Assembly: GCA_041488275.1 (NCBI GenBank)
Contig: JBGPOY010000002.1
Location: 11,336 to 75,335, forward strand
DNA: 64,000 nt
DNA from: Candidatus Nanoarchaeia archaeon
Lineage (GTDB): Archaea; Nanobdellota; Nanobdellia; Woesearchaeales; ARS49
Direction of reading: 5' to 3'
In this document: positions 8,993 to 39,118 of the stretch, piece by piece
Layout: every line of letters starts with the position of its first letter
How positions within the stretch are numbered: position 1 is the first letter of the stretch
Program-made: the position numbers and the translations under genes
The notes under the pieces: model-generated
What the model was told of the DNA's origin: nothing
Databases searched by the model: none
The model's input: only the letters and a program-made list of their open reading frames with translations

Positions 8993-9223
8993 ATGATGGA
9001 ACAAAGTCGTCCGTTGGACGCGCTCAACAAGGCGCGCAACAAGAAAGTGATGGTCGAGCTGAAGGGTGGCAAGACGTACGTCGGCAACCTGAACGCGTTC
9101 GACATCCACATCAACGTTGTCTTGGACAACGCTGAAGAACATGAAAACGGCGCCGTGAAGCGCAAGCTCGGAACCGTCTTTTTGCGCGGCGATACCATCA
9201 TCCTGATTTCGCCCGCAGCGTAA
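8993..9223 (+). CDS. Sm-like (LSm) archaeal protein
   Basis: Sm1/Sm2 motifs VMVELKGGKTYVGNLNAFDIHINVVL...VFLRGDTII. Precedes L37e, as is typical in archaea. Confidence 0.92.
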   Translation: MMEQSRPLDALNKARNKKVMVELKGGKTYVGNLNAFDIHINVVLDNAEEHENGAVKRKLGTVFLRGDTIILISPAA

Positions 9224-9232
9224 GGAACTTCC

Positions 9233-9397
9233 ATGAAAGGCACATACTCGATGGGCAAGCGCAACAAGCGCGCGAGCCATATCATTTGCAGGCGTTGCGG
9301 CAGACATAGCTATCACACCCGCAACAAGGCCTGTGCGAGCTGCGGCTTCGGCAAGTCCGCGAGGATGCGCCACTACGCCTGGAAGAACGACGCGTAA
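9233..9397 (+). CDS. rpl37e: Ribosomal protein L37e
   Basis: Hand translation [54 protein letters not shown], a C4 zinc ribbon. Below the ORF-track cutoff. Confidence 0.92.
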
Positions 9398-9519
9398 GTC
9401 CTTTTTTGTATCTTCTCCGATATTTAGTTTACGACTTCTATTTCGTAATACTTTCCACTCGTGATTTGTTCGTGAAACACGCAAGACTATTAAGCAAGGC
9501 TTTGTTCAGGAGTCATAAC

Positions 9520-9602
9520 GCAGGGATGCCGGAGTGGCTAACGGGCACGGCTTAGGACCGTGTGGCTCAGCGCCTTCGCAGGTTCGAATCCTGCTCCCTG
9601 CA
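9520..9602 (+). tRNA. tRNA-Leu (anticodon UAG), class II long variable arm
   Basis: Acceptor GCAGGGA/TCCCTGC, anticodon stem CACGG/CCGTG with loop CTTAGGA, T arm GCAGG-TTCGAAT-CCTGC, discriminator A. Confidence 0.9.
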
Positions 9603-9621
9603 TCGTGAGCGAAGCGAACGA

Positions 9622-9676
9622 GTAGGGACAGGCCCTCCGAGGCGAAGACTCGGAGACTGCCTGCTCCCTGCATCGT
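9622..9676 (+). pseudogene. tRNA-Leu-derived minihelix remnant ending in a 17/17 direct repeat of the tRNA 3' end
   Basis: GTAGGGA..TCCCTGC acceptor-like stem, CAGGC/GCCTG stem, CTCCGAG-GCGAAGA-CTCGGAG stem-loop. CCTGCTCCCTGCATCGT at 9660-9676 equals 9590-9606. Confidence 0.45.
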
Positions 9677-10050
9677 AACGGCTTGATGACTAAATATAGG
9701 AGCCCGTCTTAGGAGTTTAGTACTGCGTTCCTGCTTGCTTCCTACTGCGCTTCCATGCTGCCGGGGCAGTTCTCAGGCGGGGCTCCTGCGTGTTTCCCTG
9801 CGCTGTTCAGGGTTTGTTCGCGTTTCCGTCGACAAACGCGTGAGGGAGTGGCGCGTTTTCGCCAATATCCGTTCCATACCATTTCGGAGTAACGACGCAG
9901 TTTTAGACCGCAGGGAGGGCATTAACTTGCGTAATGGCTAAAAACTGCATTTATGCCGAGGGGGGATTGCGAAAAACTTATAAACGGTCATGGGTTTGGC
10001 AGTAGTGCTTAGTTGTCATAGCTTTCACAACAGGCAGAAAGAGAGGAACG

Positions 10051-10068
10051 TATATTTTTGAAAATATA
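10051..10068. promoter_or_regulatory. AT-rich 18-bp palindrome upstream of the S-layer gene
   Basis: TATATTTT-TG-AAAATATA with perfect 8-bp arms, about 110 nt upstream of ATG 10177. TATA-like cataaata follows at ~10088. Confidence 0.3.
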
Positions 10069-10176
10069 TGTTCTCACCACACAAGGCATAAATACGCACT
10101 CGTTGGGAGTCCCCCTTCTGGGTACGCGTCTTTATTCCAATAAAGATATACAGCCCAAAAACACGGAGGTGTTTAG

Positions 10177-12600
10177 ATGAAAGCAATAAATACCAAGAAG
10201 ATTATCGCATTGACCACTGGCCTCGCCATGGTTGGAGCGACTATCTTCGGCGCAGCTGCTCAGGACCTGAGTCAGTATCCGTCCCCCTTGTTCATCAAGG
10301 ATGGCGTTTTCGACGGATCTATCGTGGTCGGCGAGCTCGCTAAGACATCCGACGTTATTGGTTCGATTGAACTCGCAGCCGGCCTTCAGGCCGCCGCAGT
10401 CAAGAAGACCATCTTGAACATCGGTGCAGGAAGTTCGGTTATTGACAAGGGAGTCAAGATCGACAAGTCGGGTAACCACCTCGGTTACAACAAGTACCTG
10501 TTCAATGTGCAGGACTCTGACTTGGACAGCGGCAGTTTGCCTGACTTGATGCCCAGCGGACTCTACGATGACTCCGAAGGAAACACCAAGAACAAGGTTG
10601 ACTACGACCAGCGTCTTTCATTCTCGGCCACGGGCGGACAGGTTGTCTTCACCCAGGACGACGAAGACGCACCGAACGCAGGACCGTACCTGTGGTTTAA
10701 CAGCAACGTCAACATGTACAACTACACGTTGAAGTTCAATGAGGACGTCGACTTCGACAGTACCTCAACGACAACGGCCACGGAAGACTTCCAGTCGACC
10801 AAGGTCAACATGCTCGGTAAGACGTACACCGTCACCGACGCGCACATCTCCAGCGGTGCTATCGACAAGATGACGCTCCTCGCGGGCGACACGACTCGAT
10901 GGATGACGCAGGACGAACCTTTGGACCGTGAAATCGGCGGCGCGAAGCACACCTTCACGCTCGTTGATGTCAACGAAGGAGAAGACAAGTGTGGCGTCAG
11001 CGTTGACGGCACTGTTCAGTGGATCGACAAGGGTCAGACTAAGACCATCAACGGCATCCAGATCGGCGTTACGGACGCGATTACCGTCCACAGCGCAGGT
11101 AAGGACACCGACGTGTGTGAAGTCAACCTCGGCGCGACCGAACTGAAGCTCGAGAACAGCAACGAAGTGAAGTTGAACGGCGTCTCCCTCGCGGGATCGC
11201 AGGTTACCTTCACCGGCGGCGCTGGAACCTTGCGTTCGCTCGGCATTGTCTACCAGCCCGACAACGACGTGTTCCTCGGAGAGGGAGCTCACTACACTGA
11301 GCCCATCTTCGATGCGTTCACGTTCTACTTCGACGGCATGACGAAGGACAAGACCGAAGCAATCAACCTCGACGCGTCAGGCAAGAGCGCAGACCTGCAC
11401 TTCTTGAACTCCGACAACAAGGATGTCAAGATTAGCTGGAAGATGAACAACTCCAACGTCATTGTCCTCGGTACGGACAGCGACAAGGACAAGCGCATCT
11501 ACCTGCAGACTCAGGCGTGCGGTTACAACCAAGCGGTTGAAACGGTCAAGTCGTGCGAAGGAAGCAAGTTCTTGGTCATTACATCAGGCGGCGAAGCCCA
11601 CCTGTTGAAGATCTTGAACTTCGACACCTCGAACGCCAAGATCAAGTTGCACGACGAAACGTACGGCTCGGACAGCGAAGACGACTTTAACACGTCGGTT
11701 CTCGGTTCGGCCCAGACGATCGACCTCGGCAGCGGCGCGGGTTCAGTTACCGTGACGCTCAAGGCCAACCAGTCGAACGTCGGCAACAACACGCAGACGC
11801 TCAACTTCACGAGCATCGCCGGCAACGGCGGCGTTTCGAAGACGAGCCTGAACAACGGAAACAACGGCGCTGGCACGGCCGGCCTCGTGATTCCGTCATA
11901 CGACCAGAACGGAACCGCGTTCAAGTTCACTGAGGAAACTCAGGACAACTACGGCGGCGCCATCTGGAACGCGACGATCTCCGTTGACACTGCGGACACC
12001 GACATCAACGTCGGTACTCCGACGATTTCGCCGGCGGGTTCATTCATCGCCAGCGGCATCGACGCGAACAAGGACGACAACGACCACTCGTACTACGTTA
12101 CGAACTGGTCGACAACGGCCTACTTCGACAACAAGGACAACAACTTCGTCCACATCGAATACCCGGACTCGTACAGGTACGGTCAAGTGTTCGTTGGAGA
12201 AGCCGAAGCAAAGATTACTTCGGCGGGCGGCGCAGTTGAAAGCGTCCAGGTCCAGCAGATCCCGGTCGGAAGCGCAAAGCTCGACAAGGATGTCACGGAC
12301 TGGAGCGCCCAGAACTTGATTGTCGTCGGTGGTCCGTGTGCCAACACAGTCGCGGCTGCTCTCTTGGGCAACCCGGCTGACTGTTCCGCGGGCTTCAAGG
12401 AAGGCGAGGGTATCATCCAGCTGTTCAAGGCCAGCACCGGCAAGGTTTCCTTGCTTGCTGCAGGCTACAGCGCATTGGACACTCGCCGTGTCAGCCGTGT
12501 CCTTGCGAACTACAAGGACTATGCTTCCAGCCTGAAGGGCACGGAAGTGAAGGTCAAGGGCACGTCCTTGAGCGACATCAGCATCGAAGCTGTTGCGTAA
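10177..12600 (+). CDS. S-layer protein (archaeal, Methanococcus-like type)
   Basis: Signal peptide. N-terminal DLSQYPSPLFIKDGVFDGSIVVGELAKTSDVIGSIELAAGL and C-terminal NLIVVGGPCANTVAAALLG motifs. SD GGAGGTG 6 nt upstream. Thr/Asn/Asp-rich. Confidence 0.9.
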   Translation: MKAINTKKIIALTTGLAMVGATIFGAAAQDLSQYPSPLFIKDGVFDGSIVVGELAKTSDVIGSIELAAGLQAAAVKKTILNIGAGSSVIDKGVKIDKSGNHLGYNKYLFNVQDSDLDSGSLPDLMPSGLYDDSEGNTKNKVDYDQRLSFSATGGQVVFTQDDEDAPNAGPYLWFNSNVNMYNYTLKFNEDVDFDSTSTTTATEDFQSTKVNMLGKTYTVTDAHISSGAIDKMTLLAGDTTRWMTQDEPLDREIGGAKHTFTLVDVNEGEDKCGVSVDGTVQWIDKGQTKTINGIQIGVTDAITVHSAGKDTDVCEVNLGATELKLENSNEVKLNGVSLAGSQVTFTGGAGTLRSLGIVYQPDNDVFLGEGAHYTEPIFDAFTFYFDGMTKDKTEAINLDASGKSADLHFLNSDNKDVKISWKMNNSNVIVLGTDSDKDKRIYLQTQACGYNQAVETVKSCEGSKFLVITSGGEAHLLKILNFDTSNAKIKLHDETYGSDSEDDFNTSVLGSAQTIDLGSGAGSVTVTLKANQSNVGNNTQTLNFTSIAGNGGVSKTSLNNGNNGAGTAGLVIPSYDQNGTAFKFTEETQDNYGGAIWNATISVDTADTDINVGTPTISPAGSFIASGIDANKDDNDHSYYVTNWSTTAYFDNKDNNFVHIEYPDSYRYGQVFVGEAEAKITSAGGAVESVQVQQIPVGSAKLDKDVTDWSAQNLIVVGGPCANTVAAALLGNPADCSAGFKEGEGIIQLFKASTGKVSLLAAGYSALDTRRVSRVLANYKDYASSLKGTEVKVKGTSLSDISIEAVA

Positions 12601-36365: not shown

Positions 36366-37298
36366 GTGGGAGAAGTACGCCGCGATTACATTCTTGACCG
36401 CTGGGTCGTCATCGTGCCAAAGCGAGGCGCCAGACCGTTCGAATTCAAGAAACCCGTTTCTATTATTGAAGAAAAATGCTTCTTCTGTCCCGGCAACGAA
36501 TCGCTCACGCCGTCCGAAATCGGCAGGATAGGAAGCAAGGACTGGAAAGTGCGCTGGTTCGCGAACAAGTTCGCCGCGTTCGCTCCCGAAGGCGAGCCGA
36601 AGCCAAGAACCGATAACCGTTTCTTCACGTTCGCGTCCAATTACGGTCATCATGAAGTCATCGTGGAAACGCCGCAGCACGGCAAGCAGCTGGCTGAGTT
36701 GAGCGAACAGGACATCGTGAATGTCTTGGAAGCGTACAAGAACCGCATTAACGACCTCTCCGGCGAACCGAACGTCGCGTACGTGCAGGTGTTCAAGAAC
36801 TCCGGCATTGACGCCGGCACGAGTTTGGTGCACTCGCACAGTCAATTGATGACGAGCGCGATTCCGAACAAAGAAGTTCTCGAGAAGGTCGCGGCGCGCA
36901 GGCGTTTCGTCGCGTGTCCGTACTGCGCCATCGTCCCAGCAGAAAAGCAGGGACCGCGCCGCTGCTTCGAAAACAATGACTGGGCGGCGTTTACTCCTTA
37001 CGCTTCGCGGTTCAACTACGAGTGCTGGGTGTTTCCGAAAGCCCACCTCCGCACGCTGAACGAGGCAAATCTCACGACGCTCGCGAACATGCTCAAACAA
37101 GTCCTTGCGAAAATCCATCAACTGCAGGCGTCCTACAATCTTGTCGTGCATTACTCTCCTGCCGGAGAAGACTTGCACTTTCACATCGAACTCCTACCGC
37201 GCATCAGCACATGGGGCGGCTTCGAACTCGGCTCCAATATCATCATCAACACGGTTGCTCCGGAAGACGCGGCGAAATTCTACCGAGGCGAGCAATGA
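36366..37298 (+). CDS. galT: Galactose-1-phosphate uridylyltransferase-like HIT-family nucleotidyltransferase
   Basis: Zn motif CFFCPGNE and active site HSHSQL (HxHxQ). GTG start. Confidence 0.85.
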   Translation: MGEVRRDYILDRWVVIVPKRGARPFEFKKPVSIIEEKCFFCPGNESLTPSEIGRIGSKDWKVRWFANKFAAFAPEGEPKPRTDNRFFTFASNYGHHEVIVETPQHGKQLAELSEQDIVNVLEAYKNRINDLSGEPNVAYVQVFKNSGIDAGTSLVHSHSQLMTSAIPNKEVLEKVAARRRFVACPYCAIVPAEKQGPRRCFENNDWAAFTPYASRFNYECWVFPKAHLRTLNEANLTTLANMLKQVLAKIHQLQASYNLVVHYSPAGEDLHFHIELLPRISTWGGFELGSNIIINTVAPEDAAKFYRGEQ

Positions 37299-39118
37299 AA
37301 ATCGAGCACGTCGCCGGCGGAAAACGCACCATCGCGTCTGAAGGCGATGTGCACATCTTGCAGACCAATCGTACCGGCGGATTTGCGGCGCTCGCGCCCA
37401 AACCAACAAGCAGGTACGAAGGCGTCTTCTTCCGCAAAGGTAACGACGTGTTCAAGGTGATTGAACGCCTCGAACTGCCCGGCACCGTGACGAGCGTCAC
37501 AAACCGCGTGTCGAGCGTTTCTCGCGCGTACGACCACGGTCTTGTCGAAACCTTCTGCATGCCGGACGGTCAGGACGCGCTCATCTATTCACTTGACAAA
37601 CGCAGCGAAGTTTCTCTCGTGTTGGATTGCCGCCAGCTGTACGACAGTAAGCAGTGGGGACGGACGTACACGCTCAGCGTCGACCACAAATGTCTGGTGG
37701 TGTCGTTCCAGAAAAAGAACGATGCTCGAGAGACGAACGGTCAGGAATACGACCTCCATCTCGCCGTTTTCGGCGAAGGAATGGAATTTTTGCCCGTGCA
37801 GCAGTGGAACGAAAATTATTACGACGCCGACCAGCGCCGCAACTCGTTCCCGTGGAGCCGCTGGGTGTTCACGGCGTGCAAGATGCGCGTCAAGGATGCC
37901 GTGTTCGCGTTCGCGACCGACAAAAACAAAGCGGTTGAAACGGCCATCAACGTCTACGCCCAGCGCGCGAAATTCATTGACGCAAAACAGCAACGAATCA
38001 AGCAGCTGCTCAGCGAAAACAAACTCAAAAATCCCGATTTGAACGTCAGCCGCGCGCTCGCCGTCGGAGCGCTTGACGCGCTGCACTGCGGCGACGGAAA
38101 ATCATATGCGGGCATTCCTTGGTTTACGCAGGCGTGGACGCGCGACGAATTGATTTCAATCGGTGCGAACATCGTGCTTGGGGATTTCGTGCACGCCAAG
38201 CACGTCCTGGGCAGATATTTGAGCGAAGCGAAAGGTGCGGTGCTGCCGCGCTTTTCGGGCAGCCCGATGGGCGCGCCGGATGCGCACGTTCCGGCAGCCG
38301 ACGGCATGGGCTGGCTGTTCTTCCGCATGGGGCAGTTCATGGACGCGCTCGAACGTGCGCGGAAACTCAAGACGTTCCTCAAGAGCAGCGAGCTCGATAC
38401 GGCGGAGGACAAGCTCGACACTGCGTTGAACGGGCTGTTCAAAGAACGAAGTAAAGACGGACTCATTATCAACAATCCTGACGAGACGTGGATGGACACG
38501 TCGTTCAACGGCGATTCGAGAGCCGGTGCGAGAATCGAGATTCAGGCGCTCACGCTCGCGATGCTGCAGCTGCACGCGAGATTGACCGGAACGCCCGATC
38601 CGAGAGAAAAAGAACTCCGCGACGCGGTGCGCAAGCATTTCTGGACAGGCAAGACGATCAAAGACGGCAAGGAAGACCCCACCATACGCCCCAATTGCTT
38701 CCTTGCCGCTTTTCTTTATCCGCAGCTCTTTGACAAGAAAGACTGGATGCGCGCGTTTGACGCGATGCTCCCGAAGCTCTGGCTCGACTGGGGCGGGCTT
38801 GCCAGCATCGCGACCGACCATCCGCTGTTCACCGCCAACAGTTCGGGCGAGAACGTCCGCAGCTACCACCGCGGCGATTCCTGGTTCTGGGTGAACAACA
38901 TCGCCGCCATCGTGTTGCACCGGCTGGACAAAAAGAAGTACAGCGATTACATCCGCACCATCCTGAAAGCCAGCATGCATGAGCAGGAAGCGCTCGGTAT
39001 TTCCGGTGCGTCCGGCGAACTGAGCAGCGCGTCGACATTGCGTTCCGAGGGCTGCTGGTCGCAGTTGTGGAGCAGCGCGACGCTCATTGAGCTGTTGCAC
39101 GAACTCGAGAACAAGTAG
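37295..39118 (+). CDS. Glycogen debranching enzyme (amylo-alpha-1,6-glucosidase, archaeal type)
   Basis: Start MKIEHV with ATGA overlap to galT. GDE_C-like motifs GIPWFTQAWTRDELIS, ETWMD, IEIQAL. Confidence 0.85.
   Translation: MKIEHVAGGKRTIASEGDVHILQTNRTGGFAALAPKPTSRYEGVFFRKGNDVFKVIERLELPGTVTSVTNRVSSVSRAYDHGLVETFCMPDGQDALIYSLDKRSEVSLVLDCRQLYDSKQWGRTYTLSVDHKCLVVSFQKKNDARETNGQEYDLHLAVFGEGMEFLPVQQWNENYYDADQRRNSFPWSRWVFTACKMRVKDAVFAFATDKNKAVETAINVYAQRAKFIDAKQQRIKQLLSENKLKNPDLNVSRALAVGALDALHCGDGKSYAGIPWFTQAWTRDELISIGANIVLGDFVHAKHVLGRYLSEAKGAVLPRFSGSPMGAPDAHVPAADGMGWLFFRMGQFMDALERARKLKTFLKSSELDTAEDKLDTALNGLFKERSKDGLIINNPDETWMDTSFNGDSRAGARIEIQALTLAMLQLHARLTGTPDPREKELRDAVRKHFWTGKTIKDGKEDPTIRPNCFLAAFLYPQLFDKKDWMRAFDAMLPKLWLDWGGLASIATDHPLFTANSSGENVRSYHRGDSWFWVNNIAAIVLHRLDKKKYSDYIRTILKASMHEQEALGISGASGELSSASTLRSEGCWSQLWSSATLIELLHELENK

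Follow-up and report, generated by a model that had tools for sequence, protein, structure and literature searches.

Hairpin cassettes with inverted and direct copies of the tRNA 3' end at several tRNA genes of a Woesearchaeota-like archaeon

Known tRNA-like processing elements include the Haloferax 't-element' upstream of 5S rRNA, tRNA punctuation and mascRNA. At the level of DNA, integrase-bearing mobile elements leave partial duplications of tRNA genes (attL/attR) in archaea and bacteria (PMC9897764), and casposases, for which the T-arm serves as a 'leader', can insert in tandem and join short duplexes to DNA in vitro (PMC5137440, PMC4779613). Here we describe what lies behind the tRNA-Leu(UAG) gene (9520-9602, + strand) in a 64,000-nucleotide stretch of archaeal DNA from contig JBGPOY010000002.1, hereafter the window. 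The gene, which is without an encoded CCA and was called by ARAGORN and by Rfam (RF00005, 58.1 bits), is followed by a cassette made of an inverted copy of its own 3' end, a small hairpin and a direct copy of the same end. As with the att duplications, the 3' part of an intact tRNA is repeated directly on its downstream side, and relatives have a precise empty site; as with the repeat duplication of casposons (14-15 bp) and CRISPR, a short duplication (here 13-20 bp, in a register other than that of casposons) at the tRNA end leaves the tRNA intact, and tandem arrays are possible. We give about an even chance to the interpretation that the cassette arose by duplicative insertion of DNA at the tRNA 3' end, and that its likeness to a tRNA minihelix is a product of that event. 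The literature that we searched covers partial tRNA copies, casposon duplications and mini-hairpins, and it contained no tRNA-matched inverted-plus-direct cassettes: duplications of tRNA ends are already known, and cassettes of the present kind are apparently undescribed.

In what follows X denotes the tRNA 3' end, X1 its first copy, X' the inverted copy and X2 the direct copy, while L numbers designate the loci or contigs from genome and metagenome collections that were compared with the window. The 17-mer CCTGCTCCCTGCATCGT occurs exactly twice, at 9590-9606 (X1) and at 9660-9676 (X2), both on the + strand and with 17/17 identity. X1 is composed of the T-stem 3' strand, the acceptor 3' strand, the discriminator and the native trailer TCGT. 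A third match is absent from the 64 kb even when three mismatches are allowed, with 0.14 matches expected by chance. A first-pass annotation of the window had reported this repeat and held that it was more than a random duplication; both statements stand. Public contigs were aligned to window positions 9200-10200. A contig in run X3, from a related population, joins 9589 to 9660, skipping 70 letters, with 17 letters that fit both sides; downstream it is identical to the window up to 9704 (45 nt) and has diverged beyond. The empty allele reads ...CCTGCTCCCTGCA-TCGT-AACGG, which is also the tRNA followed by TCGTAACGG, and carries a single copy of the 17-mer. Since it does, the 70-bp indel (9590-9659, or any 70-nt frame inside 9590-9676) consists of 53 new bases and a second copy of the 17 bases around the insertion point, of which 13 nt are the end of the tRNA and 4 nt are trailer, and TCGT belongs to the native trailer.

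The 53 new bases are made up of the loop GAGCGAAGCGA, of ACGAGTAGGGACAGG (X') and of CCCTCCGAGGCGAAGACTCGGAGACTG, a small hairpin with its flanks, and the order of elements at tRNA-Leu is X1, loop, X', hairpin B, X2. The first predicted hairpin, hp1 (9603-9621, + strand), can be written TCGT-GAGCGAAGCGA-ACGA, or TCGT-GA-GC-GAA-GC-GA-ACGA with a GCGAAGC mini-hairpin as its core; together with G9622 it forms the 20-mer TCGTGAGCGAAGCGAACGAG. X' (9618-9633, + strand) is an imperfect inverted copy that departs from a perfect complement of the 17-mer by one substitution and two one-base deletions. Its sequence, ACGA-G-TAGGGA-CAGGC, forms the 5' arm and is predicted to pair either with the tRNA's own 3' end or with X2. 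The inner hairpin B, predicted at 9635-9655 on the same strand, is CTCCGAG-GCGAAGA-CTCGGAG, with the core CCGAG..CTCGG.

As RNA, 9603-9676 has a minimum free energy (MFE) of -40.4 kcal/mol, whereas shuffled sequences give -23.5 +/- 3.4 (z = -5.0). The 19-bp hairpin originally proposed at 9622-9672 is real, but the full predicted structure extends over 9618-9676 and contains 23 bp, interrupted, in stems of 4 + 7 + 5 + 7 bp with single-base bulges at A9672 and C9664; the 4 bp added to the first description come from pairing between TCGT in the second repeat and ACGA in hp1. When the tRNA is included in the calculation, the MFE structure retains the cloverleaf as well as both hairpins. The fold contains a predicted 12-bp helix that resembles an acceptor stem and T-stem (7 + 5 bp, with a bulge in the case of Leu) and leaves the discriminator single-stranded, and comparable helices are predicted for the Glu and Ile cassettes described below and for L371 and L121. 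A T-loop and other tertiary features of tRNA are absent from the minihelix, a 7-bp hairpin taking the place of the T-loop, and it is called neither by the Rfam tRNA model nor by ARAGORN. No Rfam family matches hp1, the cassettes or the viral-contig region discussed further on. Elsewhere in the window, GAGCGAAGCGA occurs only at 38221-38231, inside an open reading frame (ORF) for an amylo-alpha-1,6-glucosidase-like protein (37022-39118) and without hairpin context; it is a chance match. An older, decayed copy of tRNA-Leu considered at 9700-9803, where there are weak repeats, was discarded as its alignment score is no better than that of shuffles.

The tRNA-Leu site is not alone in this genome. 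Its trailer TCGTGAGCGAAG directly follows the discriminator both in tRNA-Leu (9603-9614) and in tRNA-Gly (895-906, - strand), an identity noticed in the first-pass annotation, and the window has no further exact copy. The trailer is not a signal for tRNA processing; it is the 5' half of a widespread, stable hairpin module that takes either orientation relative to tRNAs and is also found in bacteria and viral contigs. At tRNA-Gly(GCC) (907-977, - strand; ARAGORN and Rfam) the cassette occupies 846-918 on the - strand, with X1 at 918-899 (3' end plus trailer), TCGTGAGCGAAG at 906-895, an inner hairpin at approximately 894-863 and X2 at 865-846. The direct copy matches at 16/20 positions and lies 53 nt downstream (899-918 versus 846-865). 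At tRNA-Glu(UUC) (753-829, - strand; ARAGORN and Rfam) it occupies 660-764, likewise on the - strand, with X1 at 764-752, X' at 707-697 (GCAACCGGCGG), a hairpin at 692-679 (CCGAG-CGGT-CTCGG) and X2 at 672-660, the direct copy matching at 12/13 positions 92 nt downstream (752-764 versus 660-672). The claim that all three tRNAs of the window share one architecture is thus borne out, and it extends to a fourth tRNA and to other archaea. The roughly 10 kb of the same genome that adjoin the window on its left (L374) carry tRNA-Val, an rRNA operon with a spacer tRNA-Ala, and an intron-containing tRNA (L374 16644-16745, 102 nt, Rfam 54.9 bits) that ARAGORN missed and that sits about 4 kb beyond the left end of the window. 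The latter, probably tRNA Ile-UAU with an intron of about 28 nt, is followed by a 16-nt linker, X' (GGGAACGGACCGGC), the hairpin GCCGAG-CGGA-CTCGGC and an exact 14/14 copy of TCGGTCCGGGCCCA at +52.

This genome therefore has at least four cassettes of this layout, found at 4/6 tRNAs in about 96 kb (Leu, Gly, Glu and the intron-containing one, probably Ile), with none at tRNA-Val, which has an oligo-T immediately 3', or at the tRNA-Ala of the rRNA spacer. The common order is X1, a linker that sometimes holds the hp1 module, X', a small stable hairpin and X2. Without exception X comprises the 3' strands of T-stem and acceptor together with the discriminator (+0-4 nt), which amounts to one strand of the 12-bp acceptor/T helix. 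The duplications measure 13-20 bp, the direct repeats are separated by 36-79 nt, and only the small hairpins are common between cassettes. The small hairpin CCGAG..CTCGG is often capped by a C-GAA-G triloop, and the pattern CCGAG-N3-9-CTCGG has three occurrences in the same 96 kb, each between X' and X2 and only in tRNA trailers; GARCGNAGYGA is found in the window only at 9607 and in one coding chance match. Within this genome, the cassettes recur and are restricted to tRNA trailers.

The inverted arm had been likened to the 5' acceptor strand of the tRNA, a comparison that we abandon. At tRNA-Glu the tRNA has a T6.G wobble where X' has a C (C-G), and at the tRNA-Ala of L121 the tRNA has G3.U70 where X' has A3 (A-U), removing the identity pair for Ala. 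Because X' follows the complement of X where the tRNA 5' strand differs from it, the arms derive from X and not from the 5' half of the tRNA. As judged from these sequences, X' is the Watson-Crick complement of X, and the arms of the cassette come from the target tRNA. A degenerate tRNA gene was set aside on the same ground. Three other candidates were also rejected: a primer-binding site, as no CCA complement precedes X'; a stop of cDNA (complementary DNA) synthesis at N1-methyladenosine 58 (m1A58), as X' continues through the T-loop in L121 and L308; and a bulge-helix-bulge intron, as a 4-bp helix flanked by 3-nt bulges is missing.

A comparison of orthologous loci, as proposed at the outset, shows a presence/absence polymorphism of the cassette. 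Most close relatives lack it: it is absent from the tRNA-Leu site of L357, L366/L367, L368 and L369 and from the X3 contig. Two independent samples (L371 and L372) carry a different cassette there, with X at 13/13, one mismatch in X' and quite different inner hairpins, and L338 carries two extra copies of X with unrelated spacers. In L366/L367, whose LSm is 97% identical, tRNA-Leu (615-697) is turned around, although its L37e and S-layer neighbours are the same. On either side of tRNA-Leu the intergenic DNA is otherwise unrelated among relatives, which makes this a very plastic spot. The inner sequences of the cassettes differ between lineages. At a greater distance, the orthologous Nanoarchaeota pair L121 and L365 has two modules behind tRNA-Ala(CGC), and the 20-mer TCGTGAGCGAAGCGAACGAG recurs there unchanged; the copies of X (X2 and X3 in L365) decay without compensation, and tRNA-Ala(GGC) of the same two loci has no cassette. 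Presence at orthologous loci with compensatory changes, as expected of a conserved structured RNA, was not observed among the loci compared. No close orthologues of the gene beside tRNA-Gly were found. The window locus itself is identical in the assembly of the Joint Genome Institute (JGI) and in Logan contigs.

Modules related to hp1 are much more widely distributed than the cassettes. The hairpin of the 20-mer TCGTGAGCGAAGCGAACGAG is centred on GCGAAGC and consists of 4-5 bp, tandem G.A/A.G, G-C, C-G and a triloop of GAA; GCGAAGC, or d(GCGNAGC), is known as an extraordinarily stable mini-hairpin (PMC13037366). The 20-mer is present in at least 119 genome loci, about one being expected, and in 5 viral contigs. 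Among the matches listed, its hosts are mostly haloarchaea (chromosomes and plasmids), together with several bacterial phyla. Variants of the loop (GAACGGAGTGA, GAGCGTAGCGA and others) preserve the pairing, with G-C alternating with A-T, and define a loop family GA-RC-GNA-GY-GA with variable stems. Eighteen of the 122 listed hp1 occurrences have a tRNA gene no more than 400 nt upstream of them, with about 0.6 expected (approximately 28-fold enrichment), and the motif takes both orientations relative to tRNAs. No recurrent protein family is encoded within 2.5 kb of the 20-mer. Like repetitive extragenic palindromes (REPs), bacterial interspersed mosaic elements (BIMEs) and miniature transposable elements with inverted repeats (MITEs), hp1 has, in haloarchaea, a high-copy, intergenic and mosaic occurrence, and like the mini-hairpin it contains GCGAAGC. 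Unlike these repeats, the modules of the present genome occur only in tRNA trailers, and they have no terminal inverted repeats (TIRs), short fixed duplication or linked transposase; the many dispersed copies with defined ends that would mark a MITE or REP were not seen in this genome.

Copies of tRNA ends were also sought in other genomes. Among 119 loci that share the 3' 25-mer of tRNA-Leu, 17/165 tRNAs are accompanied downstream by a copy of their 3' end (at most one mismatch in 12), against 3 with an upstream copy, and no such copy accompanies any of 15 tRNAs from unrelated, mostly bacterial control loci. Metagenome-assembled genomes (MAGs) of Thermoplasmatota and Poseidoniales contain tandem units of the form trailer, inverted T-arm, hairpins and X (L308, L332, L255/L278). 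We also observed, 3' of tRNA-Leu in MAGs of Methanosarcinales and Poseidoniales (L329, L255, L278), tandem units of about 130-400 nt that each end in the last 16-20 nt of the tRNA. A scan of the genome collection with the 15-mer GCATCGTGAGCGAAG gave chance matches only, one of them (L053) without a tRNA. Scans for a T-loop followed by N11 and TCGTGAGCGAAG, in collections that exclude the window's own genome, returned only L121 (genomes) and its orthologue L365 (metagenomes).

In haloarchaea, hp1 typically lies inside a partial copy of the neighbouring tRNA (tRNA-Tyr, Pro, Leu-CAA, Lys, Ser). In many genera a partial copy of an intact tRNA, running from the anticodon arm to the 3' end with some trailer, lies 10-200 nt behind it, and this copy is interrupted at the T-stem/T-loop or at the variable arm by a two-hairpin module (hp1 plus CTCGGAAGAC..GTCTTCCGG). 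The T-loop of the partial copy co-varies with that of the real tRNA between genera. Such loci include L190, L198, L204 and L209 (tRNA-Tyr), L174, L194, L207 and L225 (tRNA-Pro), L167, L169 and L170 (tRNA-Leu CAA), and L144 and L165. At about 5000-5350 of L167, tandem 83-nt hairpin units sit in a partial copy of tRNA-Leu, and in this MAG a run of N interrupts them. Haloarchaeal intergenic DNA further contains mosaic multi-copy repeats of several modules, for instance GCTGTCCTGGYG|GACTGAAAGGGCGA with the hairpin module often at the '|', and a second module that ends ...GCCGAGGGCTTTCGAGG. These repeats, found at L143, L149, L157, L158, L206, L213, L224, L237 and others, and in Halorussus halobius at L130, L156, L196, L202, L210 and L229, are BIME-like in organisation, and we found no name for them. 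BLAST of the haloarchaeal two-hairpin module returned 27 haloarchaeal plasmids, in all cases in unannotated intergenic DNA.

The 20-mer in viral contigs (IMG/VR, 40-45% GC; L360 5560-5579, L362 3228-3247 on the - strand, L363 1796-1815, L364 4562-4581) sits inside a multi-stem region of about 120 nt that is common to different low-GC contigs, …AGCCCCTAC-hairpin-GTTTGCCTG…[20-mer]…CAGGCAAAC…TTAGGGTAGTGGG. This region, which has no match in Rfam or in the phage collection, may be an undescribed structured RNA or DNA element. BLAST of it and of the window cassette against phage and plasmid collections returned nothing.

As for the host, gene content, the closest LSm homologues and the closest orthologous loci identify it, by sequence, as a DPANN archaeon of Woesearchaeota-like affinity. 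The window, which is 99.98% identical to a JGI sediment-metagenome contig, has housekeeping genes that include those for LSm, L37e, an S-layer protein and NrdR, with tRNA-Leu at the L37e / tRNA-Leu / S-layer locus. Its nearest LSm homologues bear the names Candidatus Woesearchaeota or Nanoarchaeota, and its nearest orthologous loci are L338 (a Woesearchaeota MAG of 57% GC) and L357. The latter (DATILO010000107.1) is filed in a 'Candidatus Binatia bacterium' MAG. Since it carries LSm, L37e, an archaeal tRNA-Leu and the S-layer gene, it is clearly archaeal and a close relative of the window, and its filing is probably a binning error. Upstream of tRNA-Leu, the window holds a 25-nt hairpin module, GTGATTTGTTCGTGAAACACGCAAG (9457-9481); the same module is found inverted and immediately 3' of the tRNA in L357 (3332-3355), with 92% identity. 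None of the Pfam hits of 45 window ORFs is an integrase, a transposase, Cas1 or a reverse transcriptase, and window Pfam hits together with the gene tables of the flanks show no integrase, cargo or Cas1 in about 96 kb.

The duplicative insertion that we favour could proceed in four steps. A break or staggered cut would bracket tRNA positions ~61-73 (+0-4), in a geometry that may be likened to a target-site duplication spanning the same positions. A pre-existing stable hairpin module would be taken up, the repair strand would fold back at this hairpin and copy X into X', and gap filling would then produce the direct duplication X2 and keep the tRNA gene intact. The 12-bp look-alike of the acceptor/T-stem with its unpaired discriminator follows from this geometry, and the 17-bp direct repeats around a hairpin favour deletion, which would account for the rapid gain and loss of cassettes. 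The reading draws on the indel with its perfect duplication, the arms derived from the target, the restriction to tRNA 3' ends, the lineage-specific inner sequences, the tandem arrays and the absence in relatives, besides the recurrence of the layout, the uncompensated decay of copies, the two orientations of hp1 and the lack of a linked integrase, transposase, Cas1 or reverse transcriptase among the window Pfam hits. Several observations weigh against it. We identified neither an enzyme nor a donor copy, and the fold-back is a step that we infer. The empty allele could be a secondary deletion. X1 and X2 agree at 17/17 positions while X' has three defects, and such a contrast in the youngest cassette fits poorly with simultaneous copying unless the fold-back is error-prone. 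Around hp1 in haloarchaea, there is no signal above controls for an immediate target duplication. Finally, arms that span exactly one 12-bp acceptor/T strand and the discriminator, at four of the six tRNAs, could equally mean selection at the level of RNA.

This last possibility, that of a functional RNA in which a tRNA-matched minihelix is kept by selection, is in our view unlikely but by no means negligible. Such an RNA might mark a cleavage site or an end for tRNase Z, RNase P or the CCA-adding enzyme and so part the tRNA from the RNA behind it; it might act as a guard, keeping X' sequestered to let the tRNA fold; or it might be a decoy for an enzyme or toxin reading the acceptor end. As in tRNA-like processing elements, an acceptor/T-arm-like helix would stand beside an RNA end where tRNase Z or RNase P could recognise it. 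The arms delimit exactly that helix in independent cassettes, the core hairpin is found only at the tRNAs with a cassette, and the two tRNAs without one have other end signals in the oligo-T and the rRNA spacer. The predicted fold is very stable and leaves the cloverleaf in place, while the Ile cassette ends about 25 nt before an ORF on the same strand and the Gly cassette lies between two tRNAs. Unlike known processing elements, however, the cassette has no T-loop, D arm or anticodon arm and shows no conservation across orthologous sites; L121 has lost the G3.U70 pair, inner sequences lack conservation from one lineage to another and hp1 occurs in both orientations. The initial proposal of a minihelix mimic is right as to the 12 bp and the unpaired discriminator, but the polymorphic presence of the cassette and the decay of X2 and X3 in L365 without compensation lead us to favour insertion at the DNA level over a conserved functional mimic.

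Two described kinds of integration could also leave repeats of a tRNA end. The cassettes could be scars, that is attL/attR sites of tyrosine-integrase elements later reduced to a few dozen bases, in the manner of cis-mobilizable elements (CIMEs). Integrations of this type have direct repeats of the tRNA 3' part as their hallmark (PMC9897764), the empty site is precise, two copies follow one another in L338, and the inverted tRNA of L366 belongs to a very plastic intergenic region. We nevertheless consider this improbable: the space between repeats is only 36-79 nt and holds no genes, the repeats are of 13-17 nt against the usual 20-50 or more, neither integrase nor cargo is present in the 96 kb, and the inverted copy is unexplained. 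Four tRNAs would moreover need four elements, yet their cassettes share one inner hairpin and one layout. A Cas1/casposase-type event, in which short DNA enters at the tRNA 3' end and duplicates a target of ~14-17 bp to give CRISPR-like mini-arrays with the tRNA end as 'repeat', appears highly improbable. Casposases do duplicate 14-15 bp at tRNA 3' ends (PMC5137440, PMC4779613), where the duplications seen here measure 13-20 bp, and the tandem units of the Thermoplasmatota and Poseidoniales MAGs would fit. Unlike casposons, however, the inserts are tiny, hairpin-rich, variable in length and devoid of TIRs, their ends GAGCGAAGCG... and ...CGGAGACTG not being complementary, and no Cas1 was found in the about 96 kb examined. 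The register also differs from that in A. boonei and M. mazei, since the duplicated segment lies almost wholly inside the tRNA (13 nt, against 4-5 nt for casposons), and an inverted copy is not expected. With genes or TIRs missing, the register different and the inverted copy and common core unexplained, both kinds of event are weaker accounts. Amplification chimeras, such as fold-back chimeras, can yield inverted-plus-direct junctions. The probability of an assembly artefact or of chance is nonetheless practically negligible, given the identity of the locus in the JGI and Logan data, the same cassette in the independent samples L371 and L372, the orthology of L121 and L365, the same phenomenon in complete isolate genomes and the 0.14 chance matches noted above for the 17-mer.

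These observations raise the tentative, and in our own estimate rather doubtful, prospect of an undescribed process that writes short hairpin cassettes specifically at tRNA 3' ends, with arms taken from the last 13 nt of the tRNA in front of each, be it a new mobile or repair mechanism or a new class of minihelix RNAs. It would operate clearly in DPANN/Woesearchaeota and apparently also in Thermoplasmatota, Poseidoniales and haloarchaea. The identical 20-mer occurs across domains, in haloarchaea, DPANN, several bacterial phyla and viral contigs. If a mobile or repair mechanism is at work, it would target tRNA ends and yield CRISPR-like 'repeat-insert-repeat' mini-arrays without Cas1. If the process acts on DNA, duplicative insertions that capture a hairpin and spare the gene would have their hot spots at tRNA 3' ends, in a geometry resembling that of casposons and CRISPR without a visible Cas1; this would bear on the origin of repeat-insert arrays, and on the reason for the many partial tRNA copies that are scattered through archaeal genomes and mislead tRNA annotation. 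If a new class of RNA is involved, the tRNA-matched minihelices may serve in the processing of tRNA ends or as decoys for enzymes or toxins that read the acceptor end. Should the transcripts be used, these tRNA-specific minihelices would be a ready-made set of substrates on which to test the RNase P, tRNase Z and CCA-adding enzymes of DPANN archaea with their reduced genomes.

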